Shown here: positions 7,145 through 49,014 of the stretch, piece by piece | How the letters are laid out: each line of letters begins with the position of its first letter | Numbering within the stretch: position 1 is the first letter of the stretch | Source of the DNA: Escherichia coli | Lineage (GTDB): Bacteria; Pseudomonadota; Gammaproteobacteria; Enterobacterales; Enterobacteriaceae | DNA length: 64,000 nt | Assembly: GCF_002854065.1 (NCBI RefSeq) | Contig: NZ_CP024147.1 | Direction: 5' to 3' (one strand) | The notes under the pieces: model-generated | The model's database searches: none | Told to the model about the DNA's origin: nothing | What the model saw: the letters and a program-made list of their open reading frames with translations, nothing else | Made by a program: the position numbers and the translations under genes

Positions 7145-8164
7145 TCAAAAATCGGCTTTCAACACCACGCGGTAACGCGCCTTACCGTCGCGCACATGCT
7201 GGATGGCGTCGTTAATTTTCGACATCGGGAACAATTCGGTAGTCGGCGCAACCTTGCTGCGGGCGGCAAAACGCATCAGCTTACGCAACTCATAAGGCGT
7301 GCCAGTAGCAGAGCCAGAGACACTGCGATCGCCCGCAATTAACGTAAAGGCCGGAACAGACAGCGGCGTGAGAACCGCACCGACCGTATGGAAATTACCG
7401 CCATACGTCAGCGCCTCAAAATAAGGCTGCCAGTCGAGGCTGACGTTCACAGTATTGATAATGAGATCAAACTGCCCCGCCAGAGTTTTCAGTGCCTGCG
7501 GATCGCGGCTATTCACCACTTTATCGGCACCCATCGCCAGTACTTCCTGCTCTTTCGCCGGATTTGAACTAAAGGCTGTCACCTCGCATCCCATTGCGTG
7601 CAGAAGTTTTATAGCGATATGCCCCAGCCCGCCAATACCAATTACCCCAACGCGGCTGGTAGCAGTGATATGGTGCATCAATAGTGGTTTAAAGACCGTG
7701 ATACCGCCGCACAACAGCGGCCCGGCGGACTCGATATCAATATTTTCTGGCAGTGGAATCACCCATTGCCAGTCCGCACGCAACTTCTCGGCAAAGCCAC
7801 CGCGATTCATAATCGTCGGCACCGCACCTTGCTCGCAGTTGATCTGATTACCGCTAATACAGGCGTCGCAGTGACCACAGCTACGCGCCGTCCAGCCAAT
7901 CCCGACACGCTGACCGACCTGCAAACCTTTATCCTGCGCGGCGCTCCCGAGTGCCACCACGCGCCCAATCACCTCATGCCCGGCAACCAGCGGATACTGT
8001 GAAAATCCCCATTCGTTATCGATCATCGACAGATCGGAATGGCAGATCCCGCAGTAATCCACCTGCACTTCAATATCTTGTGGCTTCAGCTCACCGGGAT
8101 CGTACTCATAAACTTCCAGTTCGCCGCCCGCTTCTTTTGCGGCATAGCTTTTTATCATCGACAT
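7145..8164 (-). CDS. ahr: NADPH-dependent aldehyde reductase Ahr (YjgB), zinc-ADH family
   Basis: Zinc-ADH motifs ([15 protein letters not shown]); start placed at the internal Met (MSMIKSYAA) giving 339 aa. Confidence 0.8.
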
Positions 8165-8359
8165 TTTTTGGTCCTTCTCTGGTGTTGTCTGGGAAGTGTA
8201 GAGCATGGCAGGGCGGGGTGCCTGGAGTGTGACAAAGGTTACACATCGCGGTATGCAATGCTGAAAATTTCAGCACTTAGCGAGGTGCGAGCAAGCTGGC
8301 GCTTGCATGGTGGTGCGTGACAGGTATAATTCACAACGTTTTCCGCATACCTCTTCAGT

Positions 8360-8444
8360 GCCGAAGTGGCGAAATCGGTAGACGCAGTTGATTCAAAATC
8401 AACCGTAGAAATACGTGCCGGTTCGAGTCCGGCCTTCGGCACCA
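8360..8444 (+). tRNA. leuX: tRNA-Leu (anticodon CAA)
   Basis: Sequence GCCGAAGTGGCGAAATCGGTAGACGCAGTTGATTCAAAATCAACCGTAGAAATACGTGCCGGTTCGAGTCCGGCCTTCGGCACCA read directly; anticodon loop TTCAAAA; long variable arm. Confidence 0.9.
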
Positions 8445-8458
8445 TCGGAACATTAATA

Positions 8459-8481
8459 GACGTCAACGGACGTCTTTTTTT
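8459..8481 (+). terminator. Rho-independent terminator of leuX
   Basis: Hairpin gacgtc-aacg-gacgtc followed by a run of seven T. Confidence 0.6.
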
Positions 8482-8642
8482 GTGCCTGAAATCCAGTATC
8501 CGCAAGGCTTTCCTCGCTTTTTCACTCAACCTAAGTCAACCTGATTCAATTTACATCAACTTACTGATGCGGGTACAACTGCGGGTATATCGCGGTTCGA
8601 TAATGTTTGTACCCACACAGAACCCTTGAAAGGATACTCATC

Positions 8643-9899
8643 ATGGCTCTGAGTGATGTGAAGGTTCGTTCGGCTAAGCCTGAAGCAAAAGCCTATAAAC
8701 TTACTGATGGTGACGGTTTGGTTTTGCTGGTTCACCCGAATGGCTCAAAATACTGGCGGCTGCGTTATCGTTTTGGCGGTAAGGAGAAGATGCTGGCGCT
8801 TGGGAAATACCCTGAAGTGTCGCTGGCGGATGCCCGGGCACGCCGGGATGAAGCTCGTAAGCTGTTAGCTAATGGCGTCGATCCCAGTGAGAACAAGAAA
8901 GCCGTTAAGGTAGAGCAGGAGCAAGAGGCGATAACGTTTGAATTGGTTGCCAGAGACTGGCACGCCAGCAATCAGAAGTGGTCTGCATCGCATAGAGCTC
9001 GAGTATTGAAAAGCCTCGAAGATAATCTCTTTGCTGCTATCGGTAAGCGGAACATTGCAGAACTGAAAACGCGAGACCTACTTGTACCCATCAAAGCGGT
9101 GGAATCATCCGGGCGACTCGAAGTCGCCGCCCGTTTACAGCAGCGAACTACTGCGATTATGCGCTTTGCCGTTCAGAGCGGCTTAATCGACTATAACCCC
9201 GCACAAGAGATTGCCGGTGCGGTAGCTACGGCGAAAAGACAACATCGTGCTGCTCTGGAACTTAATCGCATTCCTGAATTACTTCACCGCATTGATCACT
9301 ATTCTGGCAGGCCGTTAACTCGACTGGCGGTTGAACTCACTTTGTTGGTTTTCATCCGTTCAAGCGAGCTGCGTTTTGCTCGCTGGTCAGAAGTGGATTT
9401 TGATACTGCCATGTGGACGATTCCAGGGGAGCGTGAACCGCTGGAAGGCGTTAAACATTCTCAGCGTGGTTCAAAGATGCGGACTCCCCATCTTGTTCCT
9501 TTGTCGCGGCAGGCTCTGGCTATTTTGGAAAAGATCAAAAGCATGAATGGGAGCCGTGACCTGATCTTCGTAGGAGATCACGATCCGCGTAAGCCAATGA
9601 GTGAGAATACGCTTAATAAGGCCTTGCGAGTAATGGGCTATGACACGAAAACGGAAGTGTGTGGGCATGGTTTCAGGACGATGGCGTGTAGCTCATTGAT
9701 TGAATCGGGTTTGTGGTCGAGAGATGCGGTGGAAAGGCAGATGAGCCATCAAGAGCGTAGCTCTGTGCGTGCGGCGTATATTCATAAGGCGGAACATTTG
9801 GGAGAACGCAGGTTGATGCTGCAGTGGTGGGCTGATTTTCTTGATGCAAATCGTGAGAAGGCGATGAGTCCATTTGATTTTGCCAAACTTAGGCGGTGA
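8643..9899 (+). CDS. P4-like tyrosine integrase (site-specific recombinase) of the leuX island
   Basis: Lies immediately 3' of the tRNA; N-terminal SAKPEAKAYKLTDGDGL...WRLRYRFGGK motif typical of P4-family integrases; C-terminal HxxR and catalytic Tyr region (HGFRTMA...AAYIH). Confidence 0.85.
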   Translation: MALSDVKVRSAKPEAKAYKLTDGDGLVLLVHPNGSKYWRLRYRFGGKEKMLALGKYPEVSLADARARRDEARKLLANGVDPSENKKAVKVEQEQEAITFELVARDWHASNQKWSASHRARVLKSLEDNLFAAIGKRNIAELKTRDLLVPIKAVESSGRLEVAARLQQRTTAIMRFAVQSGLIDYNPAQEIAGAVATAKRQHRAALELNRIPELLHRIDHYSGRPLTRLAVELTLLVFIRSSELRFARWSEVDFDTAMWTIPGEREPLEGVKHSQRGSKMRTPHLVPLSRQALAILEKIKSMNGSRDLIFVGDHDPRKPMSENTLNKALRVMGYDTKTEVCGHGFRTMACSSLIESGLWSRDAVERQMSHQERSSVRAAYIHKAEHLGERRLMLQWWADFLDANREKAMSPFDFAKLRR

Positions 9900-10229
9900 T
9901 TAATTGCGGTTTCTCCCACATTATGCGGAGGGGGACGATGTATTGGTTAAAGCGGTCCATCCGAAGGAGACCAGTAGTGCCAGCAGTAATGCTGTTACTG
10001 CTGGTTAATGACATGCTTTTTTTTGTCTATTTTTCAATCTGCGTTATGTCTCTCGGAGGTAACTCTGTGTTAAATATTGATAGGGCTAGTTTGCACAATG
10101 AAGAACCGAACAAAGTATTGATTTAACATTAGTATTTACTTAGCTGTTCTGACCGGTTTCTGCGATACAATGCTACCAAGTATGTAACTAATTCTAAGCA
10201 AAGGTGCTTTATAATCGAGAGGCGATTGA

Positions 10230-13200
10230 ATGGATGCTTTAAGGGCTACAACATCGACAAATTTCAGTTTTCTCGCTGAACATGACCCGCTGTTTCTACA
10301 AATCGCCACTGCTGCAGAAAACGCCTTCTCAGGCGATCCCAACACCACCTTGATTAAGTTGCGCCAACTAGGTGAAGCCTTAGCACAACATATTGCTGCG
10401 CTGGTCGGGATCACGTTTGATGAACCGCCCACTCAGGCTGATTTACTCTACCGCCTCAATCGCGAGCTAAAATTTGAACCCACGGTACTCGAGCTATTTC
10501 ATCTATTGCGGATAGAGGGCAACAAGGCCACTCACCAGTTCAAAACCAAGCACAAAGAGGCGCTAGATGGCTTAAAAGTGGCGCGAGCGCTAGCTATCTG
10601 GTTCCACCAATCTTTCGGCAAGCAGGGCGCGGCCTTTAAACCCGGCGCTTTTATTGCTCCTCCAGACCCGAGCAATCAGCTTAGGCAACTCCAAACGGAA
10701 ATCGATCGCCTCAAAAGTGAGCTCACTACCGCCAACATACAGCTAGATTCCAGCCAACAGCTGCAAAATTTGCTGGTGCAGGAAAAGAGTGAATATGAAG
10801 CGCTGGCGTTAGCCATGGATGATGAAACTAAGGTGTTAGCATCGCAGGCGAAAGAGCAGGAAATTGCACTCGAACAGCTTCGACAGCAATACGAAGAAAA
10901 ATTAAAAATCCTGCAAGCGCAACTGACCGAAAAAGATGAAAAGCAGGCCCGAACACAACGGCGAGAGTTTGCCCAGAAGAGCCGCCGTGCCAGCCAACAT
11001 ATCGCGTTAAATGAAGAACTCACCCGTATATTGATTGACCAAAACTTAAATGATGCGGGCTGGCTTGCTGACAGTCAGGAACTGACCTGGGCTAACGGAA
11101 CTCGCCCTGAAAAGGGGATAAACAAAGCCATTGCCGAATGGCCTACGGAGTATCAGGGTAAAAAAGGTCGCGCTGATTACGTTCTATTTTGCGGCTTAAC
11201 TCCGCTGGCCACGGTCGAAGCCAAAAAAGAAAACACCGATGTTGCGGGAAAAATTCCGCAGGCAGAACGCTACAGCAAAGGCTTCAAAATCACGTCCCCC
11301 ATGATTGGCGCATGGGAGCGGGAAGGCCGAACCATTGCATGGGCGGATGAGACTGACGGGCATTATATTATCCCGTTTGTATACTCCTGCAACGGTCGCC
11401 CCTACGTGCCACAGTTGGCTGAGTCATCAGGAACTTGGTTCCGGGACGTGCGCGAACCGTCCAACATCCGCCGTGCGCTGCAAAAGTTTCATACCCCGCA
11501 AGGCTTGCTGGATAAACTCGAACGCAGCAAAGACAGCGCCGAACAGAAGCTAAAGCAAGAAGGCTTCGCTTACCTCCGGTTACGCGATTATCAGCAAAAG
11601 GCCATTCTCGCCGTTGAAAGCACATTGGCGCAAAACATCCGCAATGCCCTTCTGGCGATGGCGACCGGCACCGGGAAAACACGCACCATTGTTGGTCTAA
11701 TGTACCGTTTTCTGAAAACTGAACGCTTCAAGCGCATCCTCTTTCTGGTTGACCGTACGGCTTTGGGCGAGCAAGCCACGGACACCTTCAAAGAAGCGCC
11801 GTTGGAGCAAAACCAGACGCTGTCTCAGATTTACAATATCGCTGAGCTCGGCGATATGGCTACACAGGCAGAAACCCGAGTACAGGTCGCGACGGTACAG
11901 GCCATGGTTAGCCGCATTTTTTCCTCGGACACACCACCGCCGGTGGATGAATTTGACTGCATCATCGTTGATGAAGCCCACCGAGGCTACACCTTAGATC
12001 AGGAAATGACTGAAGGGGAACTCTCGACCCGCGACGCCAGCCAATATCTCTCCAGCTACCGTCGGGTGCTCGATTATTTCGACGCGGTAAAAATCGGCCT
12101 TACCGCCACTCCGGCGAAACATACCAGCGATATCTTCGGCAAACCGATTTACATCTACTCCTACCGTGAAGCCGTGGCGGATGATTGGCTTATCGATCAT
12201 GAACCTCCAATCCGTTATGAAACGCTGCTGACGCAAAATGGCATCCACTTTGACAAAGGGAGCCAGGTGCATGCCATTAATATCCACACCGGAGAGGTTG
12301 AGATTGATCAGCTAGAAGACGAAGTGGATTTCAACGTTGATGCATTTAACCGTGGCGTCATCAGTGAAAACTTTAATCGGGTTATTTGCCAACAGCTCGT
12401 GAAAGAGCTCGATCCCTTTGGCGAAGAGAAAACGCTGGTTTTCTGCGTTACAGACAAACATGCCGACATGGTCAAACGCTTGCTGGATGAAGCGTTCTCT
12501 GCTGAATATGAAAACTATAATCAAGCGGCCGTCGAGAAAATCACCGGTGAAAGTGACAAAGTCAAACAGTTGATCAAACAGTATAAAAATGAACGCTATC
12601 CGAATATTGCAATCACCGTTGATTTGCTTAGCACCGGCATTGACGTGCCGAAGATTTGTAATCTGGTTTTCATGCGTCGGGTGAAGTCACGTATTTTATT
12701 TGAACAGATGATAGGCCGCGCAACACGCCGCTGTGATGACATTGGCAAAACGGTCTTCCGTATTTACGATCCAGTAGATATTTATGAGGCTCTCAGTGAC
12801 GTTAACACCATGAAACCGCTGGTCAAAGACCCCAATATCACACTTGAACAATTGGTCGGCGAGCTAACCGATACTGAACAGCTCGAAAAAGCGCTCAACA
12901 GCCCCGGTGAACATACAGGTGAAACTCAGGCTGATGTGGTGCTCAGCCAGTTAAGCCAAAAGGTGATGCGCATCCTACGTAAGGCGGAGAAACGGGCAGA
13001 AAATCGCCCAGTGGTGAAACAAAAATTGGCTGACCTCCATCAACTGTGGGGCGTTGAGCCAAAACAGCTGCATCAACATCTGCATCACTTAGGGCCGCGT
13101 CAGGCGGCAGCCTTCATCCAACAACAGCAAGGGCTAATCTGCCAGCTCAACGAGATAGCTACATTACTCGGAAGTGAATACCGGCCGATTATTTCTGAGC

Positions 13201-13754
13201 ATCATGACCAACTACAGGAACGTAACCAGAGCTACGGTAGCCATCAGCGGCCAGAAGATTACCTGGAAAGCTTTGCGGATTTTATTCAGCAGCAGCTTAA
13301 CCAATCCACTGCGCTGGCCGTGGTTGTCAACAAACCCCGCGACCTCACTCGTGAACAGCTTAAAGAGATCCGCTTATTATTAGACGGTGCGGGCTATTCC
13401 GAAGCTAATCTACAAACCGCCGTGCGTAATCAAACCAATCAGGATATCGCCGCCAGCATTGTCGGCCACATTCGCCGTGCTGCACTAGGGGAGCCTCTTG
13501 TGCCTTTTGCACAGCGCGTATCACAGGCAATGATCAACATTTATAACAGCCGCGCATGGACAACCCAGCAACGAAAATGGCTGGATCGTCTGGCAAAACA
13601 GCTGGTTCATGAAGTGATCATTGATCACCAATTTATTAACAATAGTTTTGCTGATGATGGCGGCGTAAAACAGCTCAATAAGATATTGGTAGACCAACTG
13701 GACAGCGTGCTGGATGAACTTAACGGTGCGATATGGCCACAACAAAGCGCCTGA
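10230..13754 (+). CDS. hsdR: Type I restriction enzyme R subunit (EcoKI family, type IA)
   Basis: 1174 aa; PD-(D/E)xK nuclease motif (RADYVLF...VEAKK), SF2 helicase motifs (LAMATGTGKTRT, DCIIVDEAHRGY, QMIGRATRR); collinear with remembered EcoKI HsdR. Confidence 0.9.
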   Translation: MDALRATTSTNFSFLAEHDPLFLQIATAAENAFSGDPNTTLIKLRQLGEALAQHIAALVGITFDEPPTQADLLYRLNRELKFEPTVLELFHLLRIEGNKATHQFKTKHKEALDGLKVARALAIWFHQSFGKQGAAFKPGAFIAPPDPSNQLRQLQTEIDRLKSELTTANIQLDSSQQLQNLLVQEKSEYEALALAMDDETKVLASQAKEQEIALEQLRQQYEEKLKILQAQLTEKDEKQARTQRREFAQKSRRASQHIALNEELTRILIDQNLNDAGWLADSQELTWANGTRPEKGINKAIAEWPTEYQGKKGRADYVLFCGLTPLATVEAKKENTDVAGKIPQAERYSKGFKITSPMIGAWEREGRTIAWADETDGHYIIPFVYSCNGRPYVPQLAESSGTWFRDVREPSNIRRALQKFHTPQGLLDKLERSKDSAEQKLKQEGFAYLRLRDYQQKAILAVESTLAQNIRNALLAMATGTGKTRTIVGLMYRFLKTERFKRILFLVDRTALGEQATDTFKEAPLEQNQTLSQIYNIAELGDMATQAETRVQVATVQAMVSRIFSSDTPPPVDEFDCIIVDEAHRGYTLDQEMTEGELSTRDASQYLSSYRRVLDYFDAVKIGLTATPAKHTSDIFGKPIYIYSYREAVADDWLIDHEPPIRYETLLTQNGIHFDKGSQVHAINIHTGEVEIDQLEDEVDFNVDAFNRGVISENFNRVICQQLVKELDPFGEEKTLVFCVTDKHADMVKRLLDEAFSAEYENYNQAAVEKITGESDKVKQLIKQYKNERYPNIAITVDLLSTGIDVPKICNLVFMRRVKSRILFEQMIGRATRRCDDIGKTVFRIYDPVDIYEALSDVNTMKPLVKDPNITLEQLVGELTDTEQLEKALNSPGEHTGETQADVVLSQLSQKVMRILRKAEKRAENRPVVKQKLADLHQLWGVEPKQLHQHLHHLGPRQAAAFIQQQQGLICQLNEIATLLGSEYRPIISEHHDQLQERNQSYGSHQRPEDYLESFADFIQQQLNQSTALAVVVNKPRDLTREQLKEIRLLLDGAGYSEANLQTAVRNQTNQDIAASIVGHIRRAALGEPLVPFAQRVSQAMINIYNSRAWTTQQRKWLDRLAKQLVHEVIIDHQFINNSFADDGGVKQLNKILVDQLDSVLDELNGAIWPQQSA

Positions 13755-13833
13755 TTCTGGTAAAATTCGCTAGCGAAACACGCCTTTTTAATCGCGCTTG
13801 CGGCATATTTCGCGAGCGAATGCAGGAAAAATA

Positions 13834-15402
13834 ATGAGTAATAATAACGATATCGTACAAAAACTGTGGAACCTGTGTGATGTACTGCGTGATGACGGCA
13901 TCAACTACAGCGATTACGTCACCGAACTAGTGCTACTACTGTTTATCAAAATGGTGCATGAAAATACCGAAGCAGAATTATTAGATCAGCACACTTTACC
14001 GCAGGGCTGCCGCTGGAGCGATCTCAACAGTTTATCGGGCCTCAACTTGCTTAACCATTACAAACAAATGCTGTTGAAGCTCTCCAGCGGCAAAGACGCT
14101 GAAGGTAATTCGGTTCATGCTGACCCGCTGATTAGCGCCATTTATGACGATGCGCAGACCCGCCTGCGTGAGCCTCGTCATCTCGAACAGATGATCCGCA
14201 CCCTCGACCAAATTGACTGGTTTAGTGCTAAAAAAGACGGTCTCGGTGATCTTTATGAAGGTCTGCTGGAGAAAAACGCCGGAGAAACAAAATCTGGCGC
14301 AGGTCAATATTTTACGCCGCGGGCCTTAATTAACAGCATGGTACGCTGCATTAAGCCACAGGCTGGAGAAGTGATCCAAGATCCCGCTGCGGGCACCGCA
14401 GGGTTTTTGATTGCCGCCGATCAATACATCAAGCAACAAACTGACAACCTCTACGACCTTACTGCCAAAGCGAGAACCTTTCAAAAAAATAAAGCCTTTA
14501 TTGGTGTGGAACTGGTTCCGTCTACGCGCCGCCTGGCACTGATGAACTGCCTGCTACACGGCATCGAAGGGGATGACGAAGGCGTCGTGCATCAGGGCAA
14601 CGCGTTGGGCATGGTGGGTGCTAGCTTGCCCAAGGCCGATATCATTCTTGCTAACCCGCCGTTCGGTACGGCGAAAGGCGGTGAAGCCAGCATTACTCGT
14701 GATGACTTAACCTACCCAACTAGTAACAAACAGCTAGCGTTTTTACAGCATATCTACCGTAACTTAAAACCGGGTGGCCGTGCAGCTGTGGTGCTACCCG
14801 ACAACGTCCTGTTTGAAGCGGGTGTTGGCACCGATGTACGCCGCGACCTTATGAACAAATGTAACCTGCACACCATTTTACGTTTACCCACCGGGATTTT
14901 TTACGCCCAAGGGGTGAAAACCAACGTTTTGTTCTTCACCAAAGGCAGCGCCAACAACAAACATCAGGATGAAAATTGTACCGAAAACGTCTGGATCTAT
15001 GATCTGCGTAGTAACATGCCAAGCTTTGGCAAACGCACCCCGTTTGGTGAGCAACATTTAAAACCCTTTGAAGCGGTTTACGGCGACGATGCCAACGGTC
15101 AAAGCCCACGCAGTGAAGGGGAATGGAGTTTTAACTCCGACAAACTTGACGTGCCCGATAACGCCGAAAATCAGCACGTTGACAACCGCATGGCGACCAG
15201 CCGTTGGCGCACATTCAGCCGTGAATGGATCCGCGATGTTAAAGGTGATTCATTAGATATTGCATGGCTGAAAGATAACAACAGCGTTGATGTGACTAAC
15301 CTGCCTGAACCTAGTGTATTAGCGATTGAAGCAAAAGAAGAATTAACCACTGCTTTAGCAGAACTGGATGCTTTATTGACTTTATTAGGAGCAACTCGCT
15401 GA
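13834..15402 (+). CDS. hsdM: Type I restriction-modification N6-adenine methyltransferase subunit
   Basis: Strong collinear similarity to EcoKI HsdM (SGAGQYFTPR, DPAAGTAGFL, NPPFG motifs); start at the internal ATG 13834. Confidence 0.9.
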   Translation: MSNNNDIVQKLWNLCDVLRDDGINYSDYVTELVLLLFIKMVHENTEAELLDQHTLPQGCRWSDLNSLSGLNLLNHYKQMLLKLSSGKDAEGNSVHADPLISAIYDDAQTRLREPRHLEQMIRTLDQIDWFSAKKDGLGDLYEGLLEKNAGETKSGAGQYFTPRALINSMVRCIKPQAGEVIQDPAAGTAGFLIAADQYIKQQTDNLYDLTAKARTFQKNKAFIGVELVPSTRRLALMNCLLHGIEGDDEGVVHQGNALGMVGASLPKADIILANPPFGTAKGGEASITRDDLTYPTSNKQLAFLQHIYRNLKPGGRAAVVLPDNVLFEAGVGTDVRRDLMNKCNLHTILRLPTGIFYAQGVKTNVLFFTKGSANNKHQDENCTENVWIYDLRSNMPSFGKRTPFGEQHLKPFEAVYGDDANGQSPRSEGEWSFNSDKLDVPDNAENQHVDNRMATSRWRTFSREWIRDVKGDSLDIAWLKDNNSVDVTNLPEPSVLAIEAKEELTTALAELDALLTLLGATR

Positions 15403-16778
15403 TGAGTAAGATTATTCTACCTGAAGGGTGGTCCAATTGTACTCTTGCAGATATTGCTGAAGTTAACCCTAAAAAAATAGAGGCTGAACCTGACATAATT
15501 GCAGGCTTTGTTCCTATGTCTCATGCCCCAACAAACTATTACGGGAAATTAGAGTTTGAAGAAAAGACTTGGGGTGAAATTGGTAAATCTTACACTAACT
15601 TTAAAAATGATGATGTGATTTTTGCAAAAGTAACGCCTTGTTTTGAAAATGGTAAAGCAGCAATTGTAAAAGATATGCCAAATAATATCGGTGCAGGCAG
15701 CTCTGAATTTTATGTTCTACGCGCTCGTAATCAAGAGATACCAGCCAGTTATTTACTTGGGATTATTAAGACCAGAAAATTTATGCAGGAAGGTGCAGAA
15801 AATATGACAGGTGCTGTTGGTCTGCGCCGTGTTCCAAGGGCTTTCGTTGAAAGCTTTCCTTTGATACTTCCCCCTCTTGCAGAACATAAAATCATCGCCG
15901 ATAAACTCGATATTCTGTTAGCACAGGTCGAAAGCGCCAAAGCACGCCTTGAGCAAATACCACAAATCCTGAAGCGTTTTCGTCAAGCGGTGTTGGCATC
16001 TGCGGTGAGTGGAAAATTAATACCAAAGGATCAAAAGTCCAATGTACGATTTGATGTCTCAGTTGGTTCACTTTGTATAACTTCGTTTGATGGCCCTTTT
16101 GGGTCAAAATTAAAAACGGCTGATTATACAAATGCGGGTGTTCGTGTCGCTCGACTAGAAAATATTGGTCATTTAACATTTAATGATGAAAAAGAAACGT
16201 ATATCAGCGATACAAAATTTAATAGCCTAAAAGGAAATAAGCTCGAAAAGGATGATGTGTTATTCTCATCATTTGTAGATGAAGATGTTCGTGTATGTCT
16301 TTTTCCACATAACGATAAAATTTTTATAAACAAGGCAGATTGTTTTTGTTTAAGGATCAATCAAGAAATAGCATCACCAAAATATGTAGCTTTAACATTA
16401 GCAAGCAGAACTTCGTATGAACAAATTAAAGCACAGGTTCAAGGTGTAACACGACCTCGTATTAATTTAAAGACGTTAAGGTCTTTGTCGTTTACGTTTC
16501 CTTCTCTACAAGAACAAAACGAAATTGTTCGCCGCGTAGAACAACTCTTCGCCTATGCTGATGGCATCGAAAAGCAGGTACACAACGCCCTTGAGTGCGT
16601 CAACAACCTCACACAGTCGATTCTGGCTAAAGCATTTCGTGGGGAACTCACGGCGCAATGGCGTGCAGAAAATCCCGATTTAATTAGTGGTGAAAATAGC
16701 GCACAAGCATTACTGGTGAAAATTCAACAGCAGCGCAAAAACATAAAAAATATCAAACGCAACAAGGGTAATAATTGA
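15402..16778 (+). CDS. hsdS: Type I restriction-modification specificity subunit (two target-recognition domains)
   Basis: 458 aa; start overlaps the hsdM stop (TGATG); central and C-terminal conserved repeat regions between two variable TRDs. Confidence 0.85.
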   Translation: MSKIILPEGWSNCTLADIAEVNPKKIEAEPDIIAGFVPMSHAPTNYYGKLEFEEKTWGEIGKSYTNFKNDDVIFAKVTPCFENGKAAIVKDMPNNIGAGSSEFYVLRARNQEIPASYLLGIIKTRKFMQEGAENMTGAVGLRRVPRAFVESFPLILPPLAEHKIIADKLDILLAQVESAKARLEQIPQILKRFRQAVLASAVSGKLIPKDQKSNVRFDVSVGSLCITSFDGPFGSKLKTADYTNAGVRVARLENIGHLTFNDEKETYISDTKFNSLKGNKLEKDDVLFSSFVDEDVRVCLFPHNDKIFINKADCFCLRINQEIASPKYVALTLASRTSYEQIKAQVQGVTRPRINLKTLRSLSFTFPSLQEQNEIVRRVEQLFAYADGIEKQVHNALECVNNLTQSILAKAFRGELTAQWRAENPDLISGENSAQALLVKIQQQRKNIKNIKRNKGNN

Positions 16779-18481
16779 TGCGACTGATTTCTTTAGATTT
16801 GAGAGGCAGCTACAAAGGCTTGAAAGATCAATTCTTTGACTTCAGTTATGCCCAAGATAATATAATTGCATTGATTGGCCTTAATGGTTCTGGTAAATCT
16901 CAATTGCTTGAGTTAATCGGAGAAACTTTTGCTTATCTAGAGCGATGGCAACGTGCAGAGTTCAAAAATAAAACATCGTTAGGTTTTAGCGTCGCGGTAC
17001 ACTATCAATGGGATCTTAGAAATGATAGTGCTGTTATATCTTACCCAGACGAGCTCATGAATCATGGTGAGAGCATTGAGCTAAAGGTAACTATTGAGCT
17101 TGACGGCGATGTGTTTTTAAATGTTCGTGGTACTTATGAGTGGCATGTAATACAGCTTGGTGAGCGCCATTTCCCCATCCCTCTCGTGGTTGGTTATGCT
17201 TCGGGGCTAAACGAAAATTTACAGCGAAGTTTTATGAAAAATGCTGTGCAATATTTTGAAGTCCGTCGAATTAGTAGCCAGCGTCTAAAAATGCTATCAC
17301 GAGAAATTAATGATGAACAGTTGGCTGAAATCAATAAGAAGTATCTTAAAAAATACCCACACATATTTGATCCTTTATCAGAAGGTGATTTTTTTCCAAA
17401 TTATCACCTGAATTTGAGAGAAGTGAATCCTGCCCCTAGCAATTTTAACTATCTTGATTACGATAATATTGGGCTCTTAATTTTATCGCTATCGATTCTT
17501 CCGGCTGGGACAGTATTTCAACTATTAGATGAAATAACATATAAACATCCTGTCAAAGCTGTACTTCATTACGACTTTCGTTCTGGCATCATAGAAGATG
17601 ATGCCATTCGTGATGTGAAAATGTTGATCCGTATAGCAGGCTCCGATCAAGTAAGGCCAACAGGAGGCCGAACTACAGATAACCAGTATGAACTTTATGA
17701 GTTAGAATATCTGTCTGGAGAAATCACTCTCGAATTAAGTGATGAGGCTGTTTTAAACCGACTTCGTGAAGATAACTACTTTGATTCTTTCGCATTATTT
17801 AAAAGACTTAATAATATTCAACAGCTTGGCATAAAGAACTGGGATCGTACATCTCGTTTGAAATTGATGAAAGATGATTTTATAGGTACGGTAAAAAAAC
17901 CGCTTCAGTCAAGGTTACCTTTATCTGTTGTTGAGTTATTAATGGCTAATGAACAGGGCGATACCGTGAAGTTTGATGATTTATCTGACGGTGAAGCTCA
18001 ATTGATTCAGGTTGTTGCCGCAACAAGGATATTCAGTCAGGTTCAAGCGCTATTTCTTTTTGATGAGCCAGAAACACACCTTAATCCGTCTTGGCGTACC
18101 TATTTTCATCAGCGTTTAACTGAAGCATTTACACCTGGAAATGAGAGGAAAGGTCAATCGCAATTCTTTCTATCTACTCACTCACCATTCATGATTTCCT
18201 CGCTCAAACGCGAGAATGTATTTTTCTTCGAGCGTAGTGATATGGGTTGTATCAGTATGGAACCGGTGTCCAGCCAGACTTATGGCACATCATTTGATGT
18301 CTTGGTTAAGAACCACTACGGTCTGCGTTCCCTTATTTCACAGACAGTGGTGAAGGATGTTAAAAATCGATTACCAGAAGATAATAATCCTGAAGCAGTT
18401 ATAGCTGCGCGACTCTGGATTGAGGAAAATCTGGGAGAATCAATGGAAAAGGCTTATCTGCTAAGGAAACTAGATAGCTAA
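16778..18481 (+). CDS. ABC-type (AAA_15/AAA_21-like) ATPase, PtuA-like, coupled to hsdS
   Basis: Walker A GLNGSGKSQ near the N-terminus, Walker B LFLFDEPETHLNP and H-loop LSTHSPF near the C-terminus, with a long insert between; ATG overlaps the hsdS stop (TGATG). Confidence 0.6.
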   Translation: MRLISLDLRGSYKGLKDQFFDFSYAQDNIIALIGLNGSGKSQLLELIGETFAYLERWQRAEFKNKTSLGFSVAVHYQWDLRNDSAVISYPDELMNHGESIELKVTIELDGDVFLNVRGTYEWHVIQLGERHFPIPLVVGYASGLNENLQRSFMKNAVQYFEVRRISSQRLKMLSREINDEQLAEINKKYLKKYPHIFDPLSEGDFFPNYHLNLREVNPAPSNFNYLDYDNIGLLILSLSILPAGTVFQLLDEITYKHPVKAVLHYDFRSGIIEDDAIRDVKMLIRIAGSDQVRPTGGRTTDNQYELYELEYLSGEITLELSDEAVLNRLREDNYFDSFALFKRLNNIQQLGIKNWDRTSRLKLMKDDFIGTVKKPLQSRLPLSVVELLMANEQGDTVKFDDLSDGEAQLIQVVAATRIFSQVQALFLFDEPETHLNPSWRTYFHQRLTEAFTPGNERKGQSQFFLSTHSPFMISSLKRENVFFFERSDMGCISMEPVSSQTYGTSFDVLVKNHYGLRSLISQTVVKDVKNRLPEDNNPEAVIAARLWIEENLGESMEKAYLLRKLDS

Positions 18482-19647
18482 TGTTATTTTCACTTAATCC
18501 ACAGACGCCTCAATGTTCGGTATTTGCATTTCTTAATGCTGAATTTCTTCATTTTTTGCAAGCTACTATTAATGCTGATGTATTCTCAGAAAACTTATTC
18601 CGCACTTTTCCTGAGATGATTGAAGATACAGAAGTACTTGTCCCTAGTGTATGTTGGAGTAATGAGCCCACAAGAGAGAAATTTCTTGGGTTATGGGAAG
18701 CGCGGCCTACGACCGTTGCGCAGCGACGGGAGTTGTCAGACCAAATAAGTCAGGCTCAGGATATTAATGTATTTTTCAACAATACCCAAGCTGTATTGCC
18801 GCAATTAGTACCAGCCTCTTTATTCGAAGCATGTAAGGCGTTAACAACTCATTTGTTTACACGTACCAAAGATCTAGCTCAAGCAAAGTCACAATCCAAT
18901 AGTTCTATTGAAAAACATTATCAGAATTTCGTCAGAGAAAATAATAATAGCCATCTATGTCCTATTTGTGGCACTGCACTTCTCTCTCAAAATCGAGAAA
19001 GCGTAGCAGAGGAAGAACAATGGCGATCAGATTATGACCACATTCTTTGCAAAGATAAATATCCAGTTTACAGTGTCCATCCAGGAAACTTCATTCCGAC
19101 TTGCCATATTTGTAATAGTAAAGCTAAAGGGGCAAGGGACTTACTGAATACTGTTGGTCTCCAGAGACGATTAGCATTTTATCCACTTCCCCCATCACAA
19201 GAGTCATGTGAGCAATTTGTTGTGGTATCGCTTCACCTCAGTGACCGTAGAGATTTAATTGTGAATAGTTGGGAAACACCGTTGGAGTCAGCATCCATTT
19301 TATTCCCCAGAGCTCCAGCTGACATAGTAGATAAAATAGGTGTATGGAAAGAAGTTTATAAAGTACCAGAAAGAGTTGAACAGCATCTTAAGGTCAACTT
19401 TTGCGAGCGTATAGCCGCTGATCTACGACCAGTAAGCTTTGATGATTTCTGTGAGCAATTACATAGATATTCGAGACAAATGCCAGCAGACTATAGAAAA
19501 TCGGAATGGAGGTTTTGGTGGCAGAAAGTCTATGAATTCTTATCAGATCAAAATAGAGACTATTTACACGATGTGTGGATATTAATTGCCTGGAAATTAA
19601 GGTTATCAAATGATGCTGATATGGCTGATACGTTTAATCAAATTTAA
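18481..19647 (+). CDS. HNH endonuclease, PtuB-like partner of the ATPase
   Basis: HNH motif CPICG...DYDHI...NFIPTCHICNSKAKG; start overlaps the ATPase stop (TAATG). Confidence 0.6.
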   Translation: MLFSLNPQTPQCSVFAFLNAEFLHFLQATINADVFSENLFRTFPEMIEDTEVLVPSVCWSNEPTREKFLGLWEARPTTVAQRRELSDQISQAQDINVFFNNTQAVLPQLVPASLFEACKALTTHLFTRTKDLAQAKSQSNSSIEKHYQNFVRENNNSHLCPICGTALLSQNRESVAEEEQWRSDYDHILCKDKYPVYSVHPGNFIPTCHICNSKAKGARDLLNTVGLQRRLAFYPLPPSQESCEQFVVVSLHLSDRRDLIVNSWETPLESASILFPRAPADIVDKIGVWKEVYKVPERVEQHLKVNFCERIAADLRPVSFDDFCEQLHRYSRQMPADYRKSEWRFWWQKVYEFLSDQNRDYLHDVWILIAWKLRLSNDADMADTFNQI

Positions 19648-19675
19648 ATTTTACTTCAACAGGGTGAGAGTATTG

Positions 19676-20848
19676 TTACTCTCCCTTTTTAAAATACATT
19701 GTAGAAGGTGCGCTTATTACTACGCAACCATCAATGCCTTTTATCTTCAATACCCCTTCCTTGAATTTAACATGTTCTTGTGTTGCTCGAGTGCAGTCCC
19801 ACAGGAAGCTGATGATATACGAATCCTTATATTTTTCGTCGACACGATAAAGTGACGCATCTTCTGCAATTTCTCCTATTAGTGCAGGAAACGATTTTTT
19901 TGTATCTTTTCGGTATTTTACTTCAATAATTGTGTGCAGTGATGGCAGATAAAGGTCTATGCGGGGGTTTTTTTGTCCGACAGGCTGAAGATTCACCTCA
20001 TCTGCAATATCGTTGAATATTGGCGCAAGTAGGATATAAAGCAGATTCTGAACATGATATTCATTTTCAACTTGCCACTTTACGGGCTCTGCGCCTCTGG
20101 TTCGACCTGAGTCCTCCCATGTCCATCGTTTTAACCCTGCAGGGATATGTTCCAGAAATCCTAGCAGGTCATCCAGTGTCCATCCAGACGGTGGAGCAAT
20201 GGCAATTTCCTGATTAATTTGATTAAAAACGTAAAGCATTACACACAAGAGAGTAACTGAAGGATTTTCTGTAGCTTGTGCTTGAAATTCGCTCATGAAA
20301 CGTCCGACAAGAGAAAGTCGGTTCTGATGACTATTGATCTTCAATAACTTTCGATAATGAAGGAAGAGTGGTATGCAGGCACTACTAAAGGAGGCTGATT
20401 CGCTGTTACCGACATATGCCGCGATATCTTTCTCGAAGATACTTAGATGGTTGCTTTCAATTTGCTGAGCCAGAAACCCTGAAATCCACTTTTCGAACTC
20501 GTGATTTATGCTCTCATCTTGCATCTGTGCCGTTAGCCATTTCACTGCCATTACACCGAACATATCCGATACCCAAGGTCTCGGTGTTGAATCAATCTTG
20601 GGAGCTTGTCCGAGCAGGCGAGAGACATCCTGGACCGAGACAGTTTCATCTAGAATACCTAAACCTGAAATTGCACAGCGTTGGTATAAAGATAGGTCCG
20701 CAAAGCTAAAATTCGTAATGCAGCTTTTATCTCCTTCCAGGAGACTAAAAAAGCAGGACTTAAATGGATCAATGTGAGCGGATTCGATCACCTTACTGTG
20801 AAAATAGTCGCGTAGCTGATAAACGTTTTCTTTCTCTATAGGAACCAT
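19676..20848 (-). CDS. PD-(D/E)xK-type nuclease-like protein, candidate pAgo-associated effector
   Basis: 390 aa; C-terminal motif PRIDLYLPSLHTIIEVKYRK (D...ExK); start overlaps the end of the pAgo reading frame by 13 bp. Confidence 0.5.
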   Translation of the reverse strand: MVPIEKENVYQLRDYFHSKVIESAHIDPFKSCFFSLLEGDKSCITNFSFADLSLYQRCAISGLGILDETVSVQDVSRLLGQAPKIDSTPRPWVSDMFGVMAVKWLTAQMQDESINHEFEKWISGFLAQQIESNHLSIFEKDIAAYVGNSESASFSSACIPLFLHYRKLLKINSHQNRLSLVGRFMSEFQAQATENPSVTLLCVMLYVFNQINQEIAIAPPSGWTLDDLLGFLEHIPAGLKRWTWEDSGRTRGAEPVKWQVENEYHVQNLLYILLAPIFNDIADEVNLQPVGQKNPRIDLYLPSLHTIIEVKYRKDTKKSFPALIGEIAEDASLYRVDEKYKDSYIISFLWDCTRATQEHVKFKEGVLKIKGIDGCVVISAPSTMYFKKGE

Positions 20849-21271
20849 TGTGAATGCCCTATTTTTCCAATCATGACTGAGTCACTCCAGCCCGGAAGCT
20901 GATTCAACCATCCTAAATTATGGGCGATAAGATCGGAATAAGTGATGGTAACTGGCATGGGATTGGGGAAGTAACTACGCCAGGAGTGTGATGCGAAACT
21001 GTAGAGCTGAGCACTCAAATACTTAATATCTTTGAAGGTCGAGTCTTTATGAACGTTGACGATCACACCACGTGGATGACCGTCCGTTTCTTGTCGTAAT
21101 TCACGTTGGCCGATCAGGTAAACAAGCATTTCGTTTTTAGAAAGCTTAAACGTATTTCCGCGATGTGTCGCCAGGCGTCCTAGACTGGCCCCCTGAATCT
21201 CCAGACAACCAATATCACTTAAATAAGTGATAGTCTTAATACTAGTTTTTAGACTAGTCATTGGAGAACAG

Positions 21272-21637
21272 ATGATTGATGTCTTAGGGCCGGAGAAACG
21301 CAGACGGCGTACCACACAGGAAAAGATCGCAATTGTTCAGCAGAGCTTTGAACCGGGGATGACGGTCTCCCTCGTTGCCCGGCAACATGGTGTAGCAGCC
21401 AGCCAGTTATTTCTCTGGCGTAAGCAATACCAGGAAGGAAGTCTTACTGCTGTCGCCGCCGGAGAACAGGTTGTTCCTGCCTCTGAACTTGCTGCCGCCA
21501 TGAAGCAGATTAAAGAACTCCAGCGCCTGCTCGGCAAGAAAACGATGGAAAATGAACTCCTCAAAGAAGCCGTTGAATATGGACGGGCAAAAAAGTGGAT
21601 AGCGCACGCGCCCTTATTGCCCGGGGATGGGGAGTAA
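21272..21637 (+). CDS. insC: IS2 transposase OrfA (InsC)
   Basis: [33 protein letters not shown]... matches IS2 InsC. Confidence 0.9.
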
Positions 21638-22500
21638 GCTTAGTCAGCCGTTGTCTCCGGGTGTCGCGTGCGCAGTTGCACGTCATTCTCAGACGAACCG
21701 ATGACTGGATGGATGGCCGCCGCAGTCGTCACACTGATGATACGGATGTGCTTCTCCGTATACACCATGTTATCGGAGAGCTGCCCACGTATGGTTATCG
21801 TCGGGTATGGGCGCTGCTTCGCAGACAGGCAGAACTTGATGGTATGCCTGCGATCAATGCCAAACGTGTTTACCGGATCATGCGCCAGAATGCGCTGTTG
21901 CTTGAGCGAAAACCTGCTGTACCGCCATCGAAACGGGCACATACAGGCAGAGTGGCCGTGAAAGAAAGCAATCAGCGATGGTGCTCTGACGGGTTCGAGT
22001 TCTGCTGTGATAACGGAGAGAGACTGCGTGTCACGTTCGCGCTGGACTGCTGTGATCGTGAGGCACTGCACTGGGCGGTCACTACCGGCGGCTTCAACAG
22101 TGAAACAGTACAGGACGTCATGCTGGGAGCGGTGGAACGCCGCTTCGGCAACGATCTTCCGTCGTCTCCAGTGGAGTGGCTGACGGATAATGGTTCATGC
22201 TACCGGGCTAATGAAACACGCCAGTTCGCCCGGATGTTGGGACTTGAACCGAAGAACACGGCGGTGCGGAGTCCGGAGAGTAACGGAATAGCAGAGAGCT
22301 TCGTGAAAACGATAAAGCGTGACTACATCAGTATCATGCCCAAACCAGACGGGTTAACGGCAGCAAAGAACCTTGCAGAGGCGTTCGAGCATTATAACGA
22401 ATGGCATCCGCATAGTGCGCTGGGTTATCGCTCGCCACGGGAATATCTGCGGCAGCGGGCTTGTAATGGGTTAAGTGATAACAGATGTCTGGAAATATAG
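21595..22500 (+). CDS. insD: IS2 transposase OrfB (InsD, DDE integrase domain)
   Basis: 301 aa ORF overlapping insC in the -1 frame; DDE transposase. Confidence 0.9.
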
Positions 22501-24987
22501 GGGCAAATCCACGTCCTTTCGACATAGTCGCCGTTGAAGAGTCGAACATGTGGAGTCCGTGATTCTCTGAGATTTTTACGAAGGCATACTCGATCTGATA
22601 ATCTCTATACTTGTCGATTACCGCACGGACTGCCTGAATCTCTTCCTTATTGAACTTTTTGACTTGTACATGGAAAATTAAGCGAATCGTATCGCCTTTC
22701 TGCCAGTTCATTCGCCTTTGTATTTTTTCTATATTCTCGGCCAGAACAGAGGTTAGAGCGTCGCAGTAAGCTTCCGGTACAACGGCTTTGGACGTACTCG
22801 AGACAATGTAACTACCGTCTCCCGAAAATACGGTGGTGATTCCCATAATGCGCTGATTATGGGCACCACGCTCTTGGACTATATTTGCACTGCCAATACC
22901 GATCACGAGTTCATGGGATAGTGTTGGCGATGATTTGAGTAGCCACGGGACTCCACCCATCTTCGCATAGCAGGCCAGTGACATGTTATTAAGCGAGTAG
23001 CCGAGTGAATAATCAGACTGCGTTAGCAGCTCTATTGTGAAATCCTGTACAGGAACTTGGTGCAAGTAAAATAGGCTTTTACCAAGATAGTAAGGATTAT
23101 CAGCAACTTTGAGTTTTTTAAATGACTGCCGCACCTGTACGAGGGCCAGATCCCAACGTCCTCCTTCATCAGCTTTTTTGCGTATTGCAGCTTCGATGGC
23201 ATTTTTGTATGCATCGACGCTGTCTGTGGATGTTTCGAACACTTCAACACGACTGGTTCCAAGTGCAAATTTACCCTCAAGGCCATTTCTGAAATATTTG
23301 CTATTAGCAATGCCTTTCAGAAGCTTACGGACGAACTGCTCGACTCGCCCTTTGTCATGTTGGGCGCAGATCACGCAGATTGATGGATCGTTCCTATCGA
23401 AGGTACGCTTTGTATAGGGGCCATTTTGTGTAAGACCCTTCTCAGTCCAATCTGCTTCACCGTTATCGTTGAAGACGAACACCGGCTTTTGCATCTGTGC
23501 ACAATCTTTTTGAATATCGGATGGATCCTCAATTTCGATACGCGTTCCATCGAGCAGCGAGATGTTTGTCGCTTGGATATACTTCTTAAGGGCGTCGATG
23601 CGGTCTTTTTTATTCTCGCCTCCGTTGAAAATGGAAACGGACTGCCGAATATGTTCGACAATGGAGTCTTTCTTCGTACCATGCGTATGAAGGATGTAGT
23701 CGTCAAAATTAGCTCGACTAGCTTCGAGATAAACGTCTTTAGCCTCAGCATGAACTGCTTGGCCGTCGGGACGAATGACACTCAGAGTTCTCCCTTCGTG
23801 GCAGCTTTCTACAAACCCTAAAAGTTTTCTAAATCCGTCGTCCTGCTCGGTGACGACGTAGCGACCAATAACATTGAATCCGGTTTTTAGGAAAAACAGG
23901 CAGTTCTCTTTTACTACACGACGTGTTGAGCAATCAATTATAAGACACGGCTGACCTTGGACAGTACGAGTGTCGATTGAATACTTGGCACAAATTTTTA
24001 AGGGATAAGCCTCACCAAGAATTGAGGCTAAAAGATTGTCTTTTGGTTTGGCACTTACCACCTCGATAGGATTGAAGCCGCAAGGAGTTCGACCCAATCC
24101 AGCGAAGTGCTTGAGCAGACCATCTTTAACCAGAGAGCAAAAGGTTCCCAAATTATCCTTTAGTTGCAGTGTCTGCGGTGTACCAGGTTTGGGGAACGTA
24201 CCATCACTCGAAAAAATCTGAATATTGTCACCCTGACGCCGGAAGACGTGCGTCACTTTATGGGAGGAGCGGAGGCTATCTAGAGTCGTCTTGTCGTAGG
24301 GGATCTGGACAAATTTCAACTCCAATTCAGGGATTTTCAGTGGAAACGCATTCAGGACAATCGGCAAGACCCACCCCTTTTGTGTTAGTGAAAAATCCAA
24401 CATACTGCGTCTCGATAATTATTCCCAGTCAGGGATGTGCTGGCACCTGACTGGCGCTCGCTGTGGGTTCCCTCCATCCGACTCTGGAAATAACTGTTTC
24501 AACAATTAATTTTCCTACACTGTAGCGTAAATTTTCTTAAGGCTCCCAAAGCGATTATTTAACTCTTTAAACTAATCTAATGTAAAGACTAGGGAAATGA
24601 TACGAGTGTAGTCTATGTCTTCGCTGTGATGAGGATCTATTCTTCGGTGTACATAGGGGTACTTAAGTTCCGATATAACACTCAACCAGCCTAAATTACA
24701 TCTGCAGGATCTCATGATTAAAATGATCTATGTGGTAGGTCATTAAATGGAGTAACCGGTCTCTCATAGGCAGGCGTAAGCCACCCCTGAGGGGCAGACA
24801 GATGCCATGCAGTTGAATGGTTTAAAGGGTTTGAGAGGGTGATAGTGCTGCGGTTGTCACACTATAGAGTTCTGGCGTAAAAACAGTCAGGCATCTCGGC
24901 ATTTATCAACTCGTCCAACGCTCCTCTGAAATTTGCGGGATCGGTTTAGTTTCAGGTGGGGGCGCTGAGGCCCCCGATTTATCGTAC

Positions 24988-48211: not shown

Positions 48212-48430
48212 TTCGAGTCCGGCCTTCGCACCTTCGCACCTTCGCACCATCGGAACATCAATAGACATCAACGGACGTTTTTTTATGACTGAAATCCGCG
48301 CCACACAAGGCTTTTCGCTATTTTTCGCTCAACCTAAGTCAACCTACATCAACTTACTGATGTGGATACAGCTACAGCTGCGGCTATACCCCGATTCGAT
48401 AATGTTTGTACCCACACAAAACCCTTGAAA
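48212..48430. repeat. Partial direct repeat of the leuX 3' end plus integrase-upstream region (island right boundary / older att site)
   Basis: About 220 bp imperfect direct repeat of 8422-8640 (shared strings ttcgagtccggccttcg..., ...cggttcgataatgtttgtacccacaca.aacccttgaaagg). Confidence 0.75.
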
Positions 48431-49014
48431 GGCTACAAGGCTGAAATTGTCTAAACCATAGAGATGATTTTTATGATCCAGTCTTTCTCTTGTTGAGATA
48501 GTTCCAGTTTGCTCACTCGTGTTAAGAAGGTATTGATCACCTGAACATCCGAATTGGTGAGCCTATTTAATAGAGCGGGTGGTATACCTTTACTAACAAT
48601 CGCTTTGCGGTGACTTTCGTAGTTTTTATTACTCATTGTTGATCCTAAAAAATCATTGTATGGCGGCATTGATCGTTTCCAGCAACCTTTACTTACTCAC
48701 TTCGAACTGCATCCTCGTAGACTGTTCCACTACAATAATCGAAAAGGCGCGGATGTCCATTCAGGTATCCCGCTAATACGTATAGCAATAACAATGGCTT
48801 ATGCGGCGCGCGCTGTTCACCCTTGTGCCAGATTTTTATATTGGCAATTGCCTGCTGTAGCGATTTACTGGAAGCTATTGATATCCCTGGCAGTGAAATA
48901 ATTGCGATCATGCTCGCAAATTTTCTGCTGTTCAAGCCTGCAAGTGAAGATATATTACCTTGATCTCATTTGTTTTTTTGCTGCCTGTTCTGAGAACGTA
49001 TAAGGACATTCTCC

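Follow-up and report, generated by a model that had tools for sequence, protein, structure and literature searches.

What kind of type I RM (restriction–modification) system lies beside the leuX tRNA gene of this Escherichia coli strain, and do the two genes that follow it form part of the same defence? The question is posed by a stretch of 64,000 nucleotides of contig NZ_CP024147.1 (RefSeq assembly GCF_002854065.1), here called the window, in which hsdR, hsdM and hsdS occupy positions 10230–16778 and are followed directly by genes for an ABC-type ATPase and an HNH nuclease-like protein. A first-pass annotation, made from the sequence alone, had assigned the three hsd genes to an EcoKI-family system located in a leuX island. 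The reading that we favour, and consider likely on sequence comparison, is of an intact EcoKI-like type I RM system that falls outside the classical type IA family, is carried as cargo of the leuX island, and is accompanied by a coupled PtuA/PtuB-type effector whose function would be tied to RM.

The hsdRMS genes and their operon

The first gene, hsdR (10230..13754, + strand), encodes a restriction/translocase subunit of 1174 amino acids (aa) with Pfam ResIII, Helicase_C, EcoEI_R_C and HSDR_N domains; hsdM (13834..15402, + strand) encodes an N6-adenine methyltransferase subunit of 522 aa with N6_Mtase and HsdM_N domains; and hsdS (15402..16778, + strand) a specificity subunit of 458 aa containing two Methylase_S stretches. 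The open reading frame (ORF) of hsdM opens at 13798, and the ATG at 13834, from which the 522 aa are counted, is the RefSeq-equivalent start. Matches of all three subunits in Pfam, PADLOC and NCBIfam lie far beyond chance: PADLOC recovers REase_I at 2e-269 (HsdR), MTase_I at 2e-223 (HsdM) and Specificity_I at 2e-151 (HsdS), and HsdR scores 1616 bits against the EcoKI-type HsdR model NF008521 of NCBIfam, for which the cut-off is 729. The earlier description of a complete type I system made up of three ORFs within 10230–16778 is borne out by these matches.

The features expected of a type I enzyme are found together in the sequence, namely neighbouring R, M and S genes, an SF2 motor joined to a PD-(D/E)xK nuclease, S-adenosylmethionine (AdoMet) and NPPF motifs, and an HsdS with two target recognition domains (TRDs). 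HsdR retains GTGKT at 480, DEAH at 581 and QxxGR at 826, together with the nuclease motif D...EAK (ADYVL at 315, VEAK at 329), and HsdM retains the AdoMet motif AAGTAGF at 185 and NPPF at 274; the catalytic motifs of all five proteins of the locus (HsdR, HsdM, HsdS, ATPase and HNH protein) are preserved. There is no sign of decay, since protein lengths equal or nearly equal those of orthologues of 93–98% identity in Serratia, Phytobacter and Buttiauxella, and for HsdR and HsdM, whose orthologues there are 94–98% identical, they are the same. On this evidence, hsdRMS is predicted to be an intact and complete type I RM system. By homology, HsdM2–HsdS would methylate adenines within a two-part target, the sequence of which is determined by the pair of recognition domains in HsdS, and at an unmodified target the complex with HsdR would pull DNA at the expense of ATP and cleave it far from the site.

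The first-pass annotation placed the end of the operon at 16778, which is correct for hsdS and too early for the operon, as two further coupled genes extend it to 19647. These encode a PtuA-like ABC-type ATPase of 567 aa (16778..18481, + strand; Pfam AAA_21 and AAA_15) and an HNH nuclease-like protein of 388 aa (18481..19647, + strand) with a PtuB-like core and extra helical domains. Because single-nucleotide stop/start overlaps occur at 15402 (hsdM/hsdS), 16778 (hsdS/ATPase, TGATG) and 18481 (ATPase/HNH, TAATG), hsdM, hsdS and the two downstream genes probably share one transcript from which their products are made jointly, and may be co-translated. No terminator-like site was found between the hsdM, hsdS, ATPase and HNH genes, and a hairpin with a T-run that follows the last gene, between convergent genes (19666..19692, + strand; a terminator-like site by consensus match only), is the probable operon end.

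G+C content passes from ~50% in hsdR/hsdM to 36–41% over hsdS, ATPase and HNH (15200–19800), with ~39% in the ATPase–HNH pair, and the operon may have had different histories in its 5′ and 3′ halves. The gap between hsdR and hsdM is only 80 bp in the window; many loci of the same clade hold an insert of 1.2–1.9 kb at this point, which in one of them (L020, 7906–8976) encodes a Fic/DOC-family protein with Fic_N, Fic and SoFic-like_C domains.

The ATPase–HNH pair

The ATPase carries the full set of ABC motifs (Walker A GLNGSGKS at 34, signature LSDGE at 402, Walker B LFDEPE at 427, H-loop STHS at 466) and its partner the motif CPIC(160)...DH(186)...N...CHICN(208). PADLOC matches the ATPase to PtuA at 5e-44 and the partner to PtuB. 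The best Protein Data Bank (PDB) matches of the ATPase are Septu PtuA (8EE4) and retron I-A PtuA, at E ~1e-5 and over the C-terminal third only; its score against the NCBIfam PtuA model NF041760 is 44 bits, below the cut-off of 500, and a PDB profile search with the HNH partner returned no PtuB among its matches. As in Septu, an ABC ATPase with intact Walker A, Walker B and signature motifs stands beside an HNH nuclease; the autonomy of Septu is absent, as the pair overlaps the hsdS stop codon and lies after hsdS in all eight places at which ATPase homologues were followed up (see below). From the PtuAB proteins of Septu and of retron I-A (Ec78/Eco7, Ec83) the pair further differs in its weak sequence similarity, in the size of the partner (388 aa, against ~210–224 aa) and in its attachment to hsdS, where Septu is standalone and retron I-A PtuAB follows the retron.

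A further relative of the ATPase is found in TIGR04435, the 'restriction system-associated AAA family ATPase', whose members are the same kind of ATPase, lie after hsdS in R-M-S loci and have a homologue of the HNH partner next to them downstream. The window ATPase scores 170 bits against this model, under its cut-off of 300, and on that ground would represent a diverged sister family of TIGR04435; its RefSeq name is 'AAA family ATPase' only.

Association of the pair with type I systems

Two counts, seeded from opposite ends of the operon, bear on whether the pair belongs to the RM system. Starting from the ATPase, seven homologues of 51–93% identity (from Serratia, Marinobacter, Acinetobacter, two Vibrio and two metagenomes) led to eight places, in six genera plus metagenomes, and at all eight the pair lies directly 3′ of hsdS in an R-M-S locus, sometimes with a DUF3800 gene in between. 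Starting from HsdM, a scan with one genome per species gave 347 related stretches, of which the best 80 are 73–96% identical; among these 80, for ~75 of which the downstream region could be assessed, the pair is present in 16 loci and a different ABC ATPase in six. With the pair always found at hsdS (8/8) and RM loci mostly lacking it (16/80 have it), the link is one-sided within this sample: the pair needs RM, and RM does not need the pair. An obligate five-gene system was considered and rejected on the same count, the pair occurring in just 16 of the best 80 RM loci.

The arrangement also reaches far beyond the gammaproteobacteria. True TIGR04435 members occur on plasmids of Kovacikia and Sphingobium, a cyanobacterium and an alphaproteobacterium, within the order R-M-S-ATPase-HNH homologue, and the 'hypothetical protein' downstream in these two is homologous to the window HNH protein (hhalign 99% and 96%, respectively). 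Since it recurs across phyla although the proteins have diverged greatly, the R-M-S-ATPase-HNH arrangement appears to be old as well as cross-phylum, and it is already flagged by the name of the database family. In the literature searched, no paper was found on a PtuAB-like pair coupled to hsdS, nor any experiment on TIGR04435; the pair would stand for a widespread, experimentally untouched accessory class that is seemingly confined to type I RM systems.

In Vibrio-type loci, the DUF3800 gene between hsdS and the ATPase gene overlaps the hsdS stop codon (L009, 8015–8809; L091, 6969–7781; L092, 7092–7886). The last of these, a metagenomic five-gene cassette, has TniQ/TnsD-like genes on either side (1–346 and 11095–11781), which suggests carriage on a Tn7-like element.

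Type I operons that accommodate a second defence module have precedents in PrrC/EcoprrI, in TgvAB on V. cholerae VPI-2 and in DarTG2 of enteropathogenic E. coli (EPEC). PrrC, too, has an ABC ATPase domain; its linkage to RM is near-exclusive, and RM is often found without it (bioRxiv 10.1101/2024.01.29.577857). All three modules are inserted between hsd genes, whereas the window pair is appended after hsdS, and their effectors (an anticodon nuclease, a GmrSD-like protein and an ADP-ribosyltransferase, respectively) contrast with the ATPase and separate HNH protein found here. A PrrC-type module is one protein that joins an ABC ATPase to an anticodon nuclease domain and is nested in a type IC locus; the window pair departs from this build, being two proteins with an HNH nuclease, at an EcoKI-like locus, and placed after hsdS.

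Dependent effector, independent neighbour or guard

We take the pair to be a candidate second nuclease layer of PtuA/PtuB type, with an activity tied to RM, rather than an independent neighbour, because the association is one-sided. Several points weigh against our favoured reading as a whole. Standalone Septu functions without RM. The functional account is drawn wholly from homology and the operon structure solely from gene overlaps; a sigma-70 promoter scan gave 14 sites where 16.2 were expected and is uninformative on Pres/Pmod. The RM clade thrives without the pair, which is present in 16/80 loci, so RM function does not depend on it. The 8-bp target spacing proposed below presumes, in addition, that helix length alone sets the spacing.

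The main rival for the pair is a Septu-type system that merely lies beside the RM genes and shares their transcript for convenience, which we regard as possible, if doubtful. It would account for the PADLOC matches to PtuA and PtuB, for the ~80% of related RM loci that are without the pair, and for the G+C of the pair (~39%, against ~50% in hsdR/hsdM), and it agrees with the frequent occurrence of defence systems nested in or beside type I RM loci in the same orientation (bioRxiv 10.1101/2024.01.29.577857). It is harder to reconcile with the position after hsdS in 8/8 ATPase-seeded places, with the recurrence of the arrangement, its proteins greatly diverged, in other phyla, with the 1-nt overlaps, which argue for fixed co-expression, and with the name 'restriction system-associated' borne by a related NCBI family; standalone Septu, moreover, is seldom embedded, at 0.7% in Hma (bioRxiv 10.1101/2024.01.29.577857).

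A more specific and tentative alternative is that of a guard, by analogy with PrrC/EcoprrI, in which the pair would be silenced by the RM complex and, once a phage anti-restriction protein (Ocr, ArdA or Stp-like) disables restriction, freed to cut DNA or tRNA. An accessory always found with RM, and an RM often found without the accessory, is the very pattern seen for PrrC; in retron I-A, PtuAB is a toxin neutralised by RT-msDNA (reverse transcriptase–multicopy single-stranded DNA; PMC11555353), and for related systems with an ABC ATPase, Ocr or Stp acts as the trigger (bioRxiv 10.1101/2024.01.29.577857). The interaction and the trigger are, however, conjectural, the contexts sampled are few, and PrrC itself, found in type IC loci, consists of one protein and has another type of nuclease. 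A bolder form, to which we give no more than speculative standing, would have the pair act as an RM-dependent PtuAB-type toxin with the RM complex as sensor and antitoxin, firing when anti-restriction proteins of phages or plasmids (Ocr, ArdA or Stp-like) disable restriction, as part of an ancient, cross-phylum 'five-gene type I RM'. If that were so, it would be a third wiring of PtuAB, after standalone Septu and retron I-A. Should the pair depend on RM, as in our preferred reading, or guard it, this would extend both the paradigm set by PrrC and what is known of PtuAB as an effector, and would help to foresee the anti-restriction strategies to which such hosts are resistant.

Relation to EcoKI and the type IA family

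The window HsdR is 40% identical to EcoKI HsdR (residues 10–1169 against 5–1166) and HsdM 59% identical to EcoKI HsdM (residues 3–521 against 2–510), in agreement with the collinearity that had been noted at the outset. Among solved structures, the best relative of HsdM is EcoKI HsdM (2AR0, 682 bits), the M subunit of type IC EcoR124 reaching only 56 bits, and the comparison points to EcoKI as the closest characterised relative of the window system. The likeness extends to gene order (R-M-S), full-length collinearity, an HsdS built as TRD1-helix-TRD2-helix, the translational coupling of hsdM and hsdS, and subunit sizes (1174/522/458 aa here, 1170/529/464 aa in EcoKI).

The two systems differ in their surroundings, the EcoKI genes lying between yjiA and yjiS and being followed by symE in K-12, the window genes lying at leuX and being followed by two extra coupled genes. 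They differ also in their TRDs, which are unrelated, and in HsdR and HsdM identities that fall far under the values seen within the type IA family. A within-family benchmark is provided by LR-27, the IA allele least similar to the query among the matches listed: LR-27 and K-12 are 96% identical in HsdM and 99% in HsdR. At the DNA level, an hsdM search found one genome at 99.9% identity and 939 genomes at 67.9–69.1%, with nothing in between; the match to these IA-carrying genomes covers 69% of the gene at 68–69% identity. The nearest relatives of the window proteins lie elsewhere, across gammaproteobacterial orders; in Marinobacter, Acinetobacter and Vibrio, the R subunits are 72–76% and the M subunits 78–81% identical to those of the window and themselves only ~40% (R) and ~59% (M) identical to EcoKI. 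As the R and M identities are far below within-IA values and these relatives form a coherent clade of their own, the window system is best described, on present sequence comparisons, as a member of a widespread EcoKI-like gammaproteobacterial sister clade separate from classical IA and present in one of the 5426 complete genomes of E. coli.

Could the subunits nevertheless complement EcoKI mutants, the locus being a true type IA allele that left the immigration control region and settled at leuX? The IA family is defined by complementation of EcoKI mutants, and its HsdS has the order S1-D1-S2-D2 (PMC3874165). The domain order is shared, as HsdS starts in TRD1 and ends after D2 when aligned to EcoKI; gene order and sizes are the same, the NF008521 cut-off is passed, the HsdM-holding helices are 80% (D1) and 84% (D2) identical to those of EcoKI, and IA systems are present at the leuX hotspot, numbered 37, in 3% of genomes (PMC12707154). 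The identities of 59% (HsdM) and 40% (HsdR), set against 96% and 99% within E. coli IA, the clean hsdM gap to the 939 IA-carrying genomes, and a clade that spans gammaproteobacterial orders at a uniform ~40%/~59% to EcoKI make type IA membership improbable. Of the first-pass term 'EcoKI-family', then, the architecture and the closest characterised relative hold good, and membership of IA by sequence does not. 'EcoKI-like' would thus span at least two deep enterobacterial lineages, one of which alone is textbook IA, a distinction that matters for sequence-based classification of hsd genes. Nothing was found in the Mme2I paper to tie Mme2I to this RM clade.

The first-pass annotation had also placed the K-12 hsd genes near mcrBC and mrr, between which they lie in the K-12 locus, and had proposed a check for a canonical hsd locus in the same genome. 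The complete genome closest to the window is that of E. coli VTB96935v (NZ_CP178662.1; chicken, South Africa), in which the immigration control region (3962926–3965466) reads yjiA, penicillin G acylase, yjiS, and holds no hsd, mcrBC or mrr. The hsdM DNA search, which speaks to the IA type and not to IB, IC or ID, found the island copy as the only place in VTB96935v and thus no IA-type hsdM.

HsdS domains and predicted specificity

HsdS is laid out as TRD1 (~aa 1–150), helix D1 (aa 156–207), TRD2 (~aa 208–368) and helix D2 (aa 369–445). In ungapped alignment with EcoKI, the helices are 80% (D1) and 84% (D2) identical, in contrast to TRDs that are unrelated at 21–24%. TRD2, at 24%, probably does not read GTGC. 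No hsdS with either TRD was found in the DNA search of 5426 E. coli genomes, in which only D1 and D2 were matched, at 79–80%, and the recognition target is likely to be new for E. coli. No motif could be assigned from the TRDs, in keeping with the first-pass remark that the recognition sequence is not readable from sequence alone.

Comparison with the Serratia orthologue (hsdS 15402–16778 against 7619–9001 of locus L004) gives 96% identity in TRD1 and just 23% in TRD2, a pattern typical of domains reassorted through crossing-over within D1; the window and Serratia enzymes probably have one half-site in common and differ in the other. In the IA family, 8 bp separate the two methylated adenines (PMC12707154). 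The D1 and D2 helix lengths equal those of EcoKI, for which reason the methylated adenines of the window target are probably 8 bp apart as well.

The helices D1 (15867–16022) and D2 (16506–16736) are as similar to those of EcoKI (80% and 84%) as to those of same-clade HsdS proteins from other orders, or more so (D2 64–75%), although HsdM is only 59% identical to EcoKI; this hints at an old exchange of hsdS between the two lineages in enterobacteria or at unusually strong constraint. Recent recombination with an IA hsdS was rejected, the DNA of D1/D2 being ~80% identical, above the 69% of hsdM yet not near-identical; an older exchange with IA is possible.

The leuX island and its other cargo

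The features of a tRNA-borne island are found in order. A tRNA-Leu(CAA) gene identified by ARAGORN as leuX (8360..8444, + strand) is followed by a P4-type tyrosine integrase gene (8643..9899, + strand; Pfam Arm-DNA-bind_3, Phage_int_M and Phage_integrase), and the far border is a repeat of the tRNA 3′ end. The integrase ORF can be opened from a TTG at 8607, the RefSeq-equivalent start being the ATG at 8643; the same integrase is annotated "integrase" in NZ_CP178662.1. Direct-repeat search and alignment place the left attachment repeat at the leuX 3′ end (8422–8444, + strand) and the right one at 48212..48243 (+ strand), where the copy of the 3′ end contains an internal duplication of 15 nt (CACCTTCGCACCTTC). 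From the leuX 3′ end to this repeat the island measures 39.8 kb. The earlier placement of the system on an island at leuX, beside a P4-type integrase, agrees with the tRNA gene, the integrase domains and the border repeats; hsdRMS would be the integrase-proximal cargo.

That this placement is unusual, as had also been implied, is not upheld. Of the 41 defence hotspots of E. coli, leuX (#37) is the one most often occupied, and type I systems are present there in 17% of genomes (IA 3%, IB 7%, IC 4%, ID 3%; 2025 EcoSal Plus review, PMC12707154), so the location of the RM system is not surprising. The window shares with hotspot #37 the leuX anchor, an integrase of the arm type on the left and a varying set of defence genes that includes type I RM (PMC12707154); there is no essential difference, only the combination of RM, ATPase–HNH and a prokaryotic Argonaute (pAgo) being rare. 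As an RM system the locus adds little, being one more type I enzyme, probably of new specificity, at a hotspot known for such systems.

The window is 99.9–100% identical to VTB96935v except for an insertion of IS2, and the whole stretch 8300–20900 is found in just one E. coli genome among 5426 complete ones; no PLSDB plasmid matches the 9.4-kb cassette. Other strains have the distal part of the island in common and are without the RM, ATPase–HNH and pAgo block, which fits a cassette-like replacement beside the integrase. The block of RM, ATPase–HNH and nuclease–pAgo moves as one unit, since it is kept at 93–99% protein identity in Serratia and Phytobacter loci. A decaying or methylation-only remnant, devoid of restriction activity, might be suspected from the IS2 insertion that breaks the neighbouring pAgo gene and marks the island as one that gathers damage, and is very improbable given five full-length ORFs, intact catalytic motifs and proteins 99.9–100% identical to those of VTB96935v and 93–98% identical to those of other genera.

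Convergent to the RM operon lie the pAgo gene (PADLOC class II pAgo, 5e-231) and an overlapping upstream partner nuclease (together 19676–24403, − strand), the latter with a DpnII-MboI REase domain and a PADLOC match to 'Aga helical-REase' at 4e-132. The pAgo gene (20836–24403, − strand) is split into 20836–21181 and 22518–24403 by an IS2 copy at 21182–22517 (1331 bp, with GTCCT duplicated as a 5-bp target site); the versions in E. coli VTB96935v, in Serratia and in Phytobacter are unbroken and encode 743 aa.

Directly after the right attachment repeat, 48244–48436 is a degraded copy, ~190 bp long, of the sequence upstream of the integrase, without the integrase gene, and 48212–48436 is probably what a second leuX element, once present in tandem, has left behind; beyond this border follow nanS/nanM-like genes and then fim genes. 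Further defence genes lie within the island, among them a Gabija-like pair (37086–40674, − strand), composed of an OLD-type ATPase with AAA_15 and TOPRIM domains (38890–40674) and a UvrD-family helicase (37086–39005), and a protein whose restriction endonuclease domain is of the Mrr_cat type (47044–48051) just inside the right island end.

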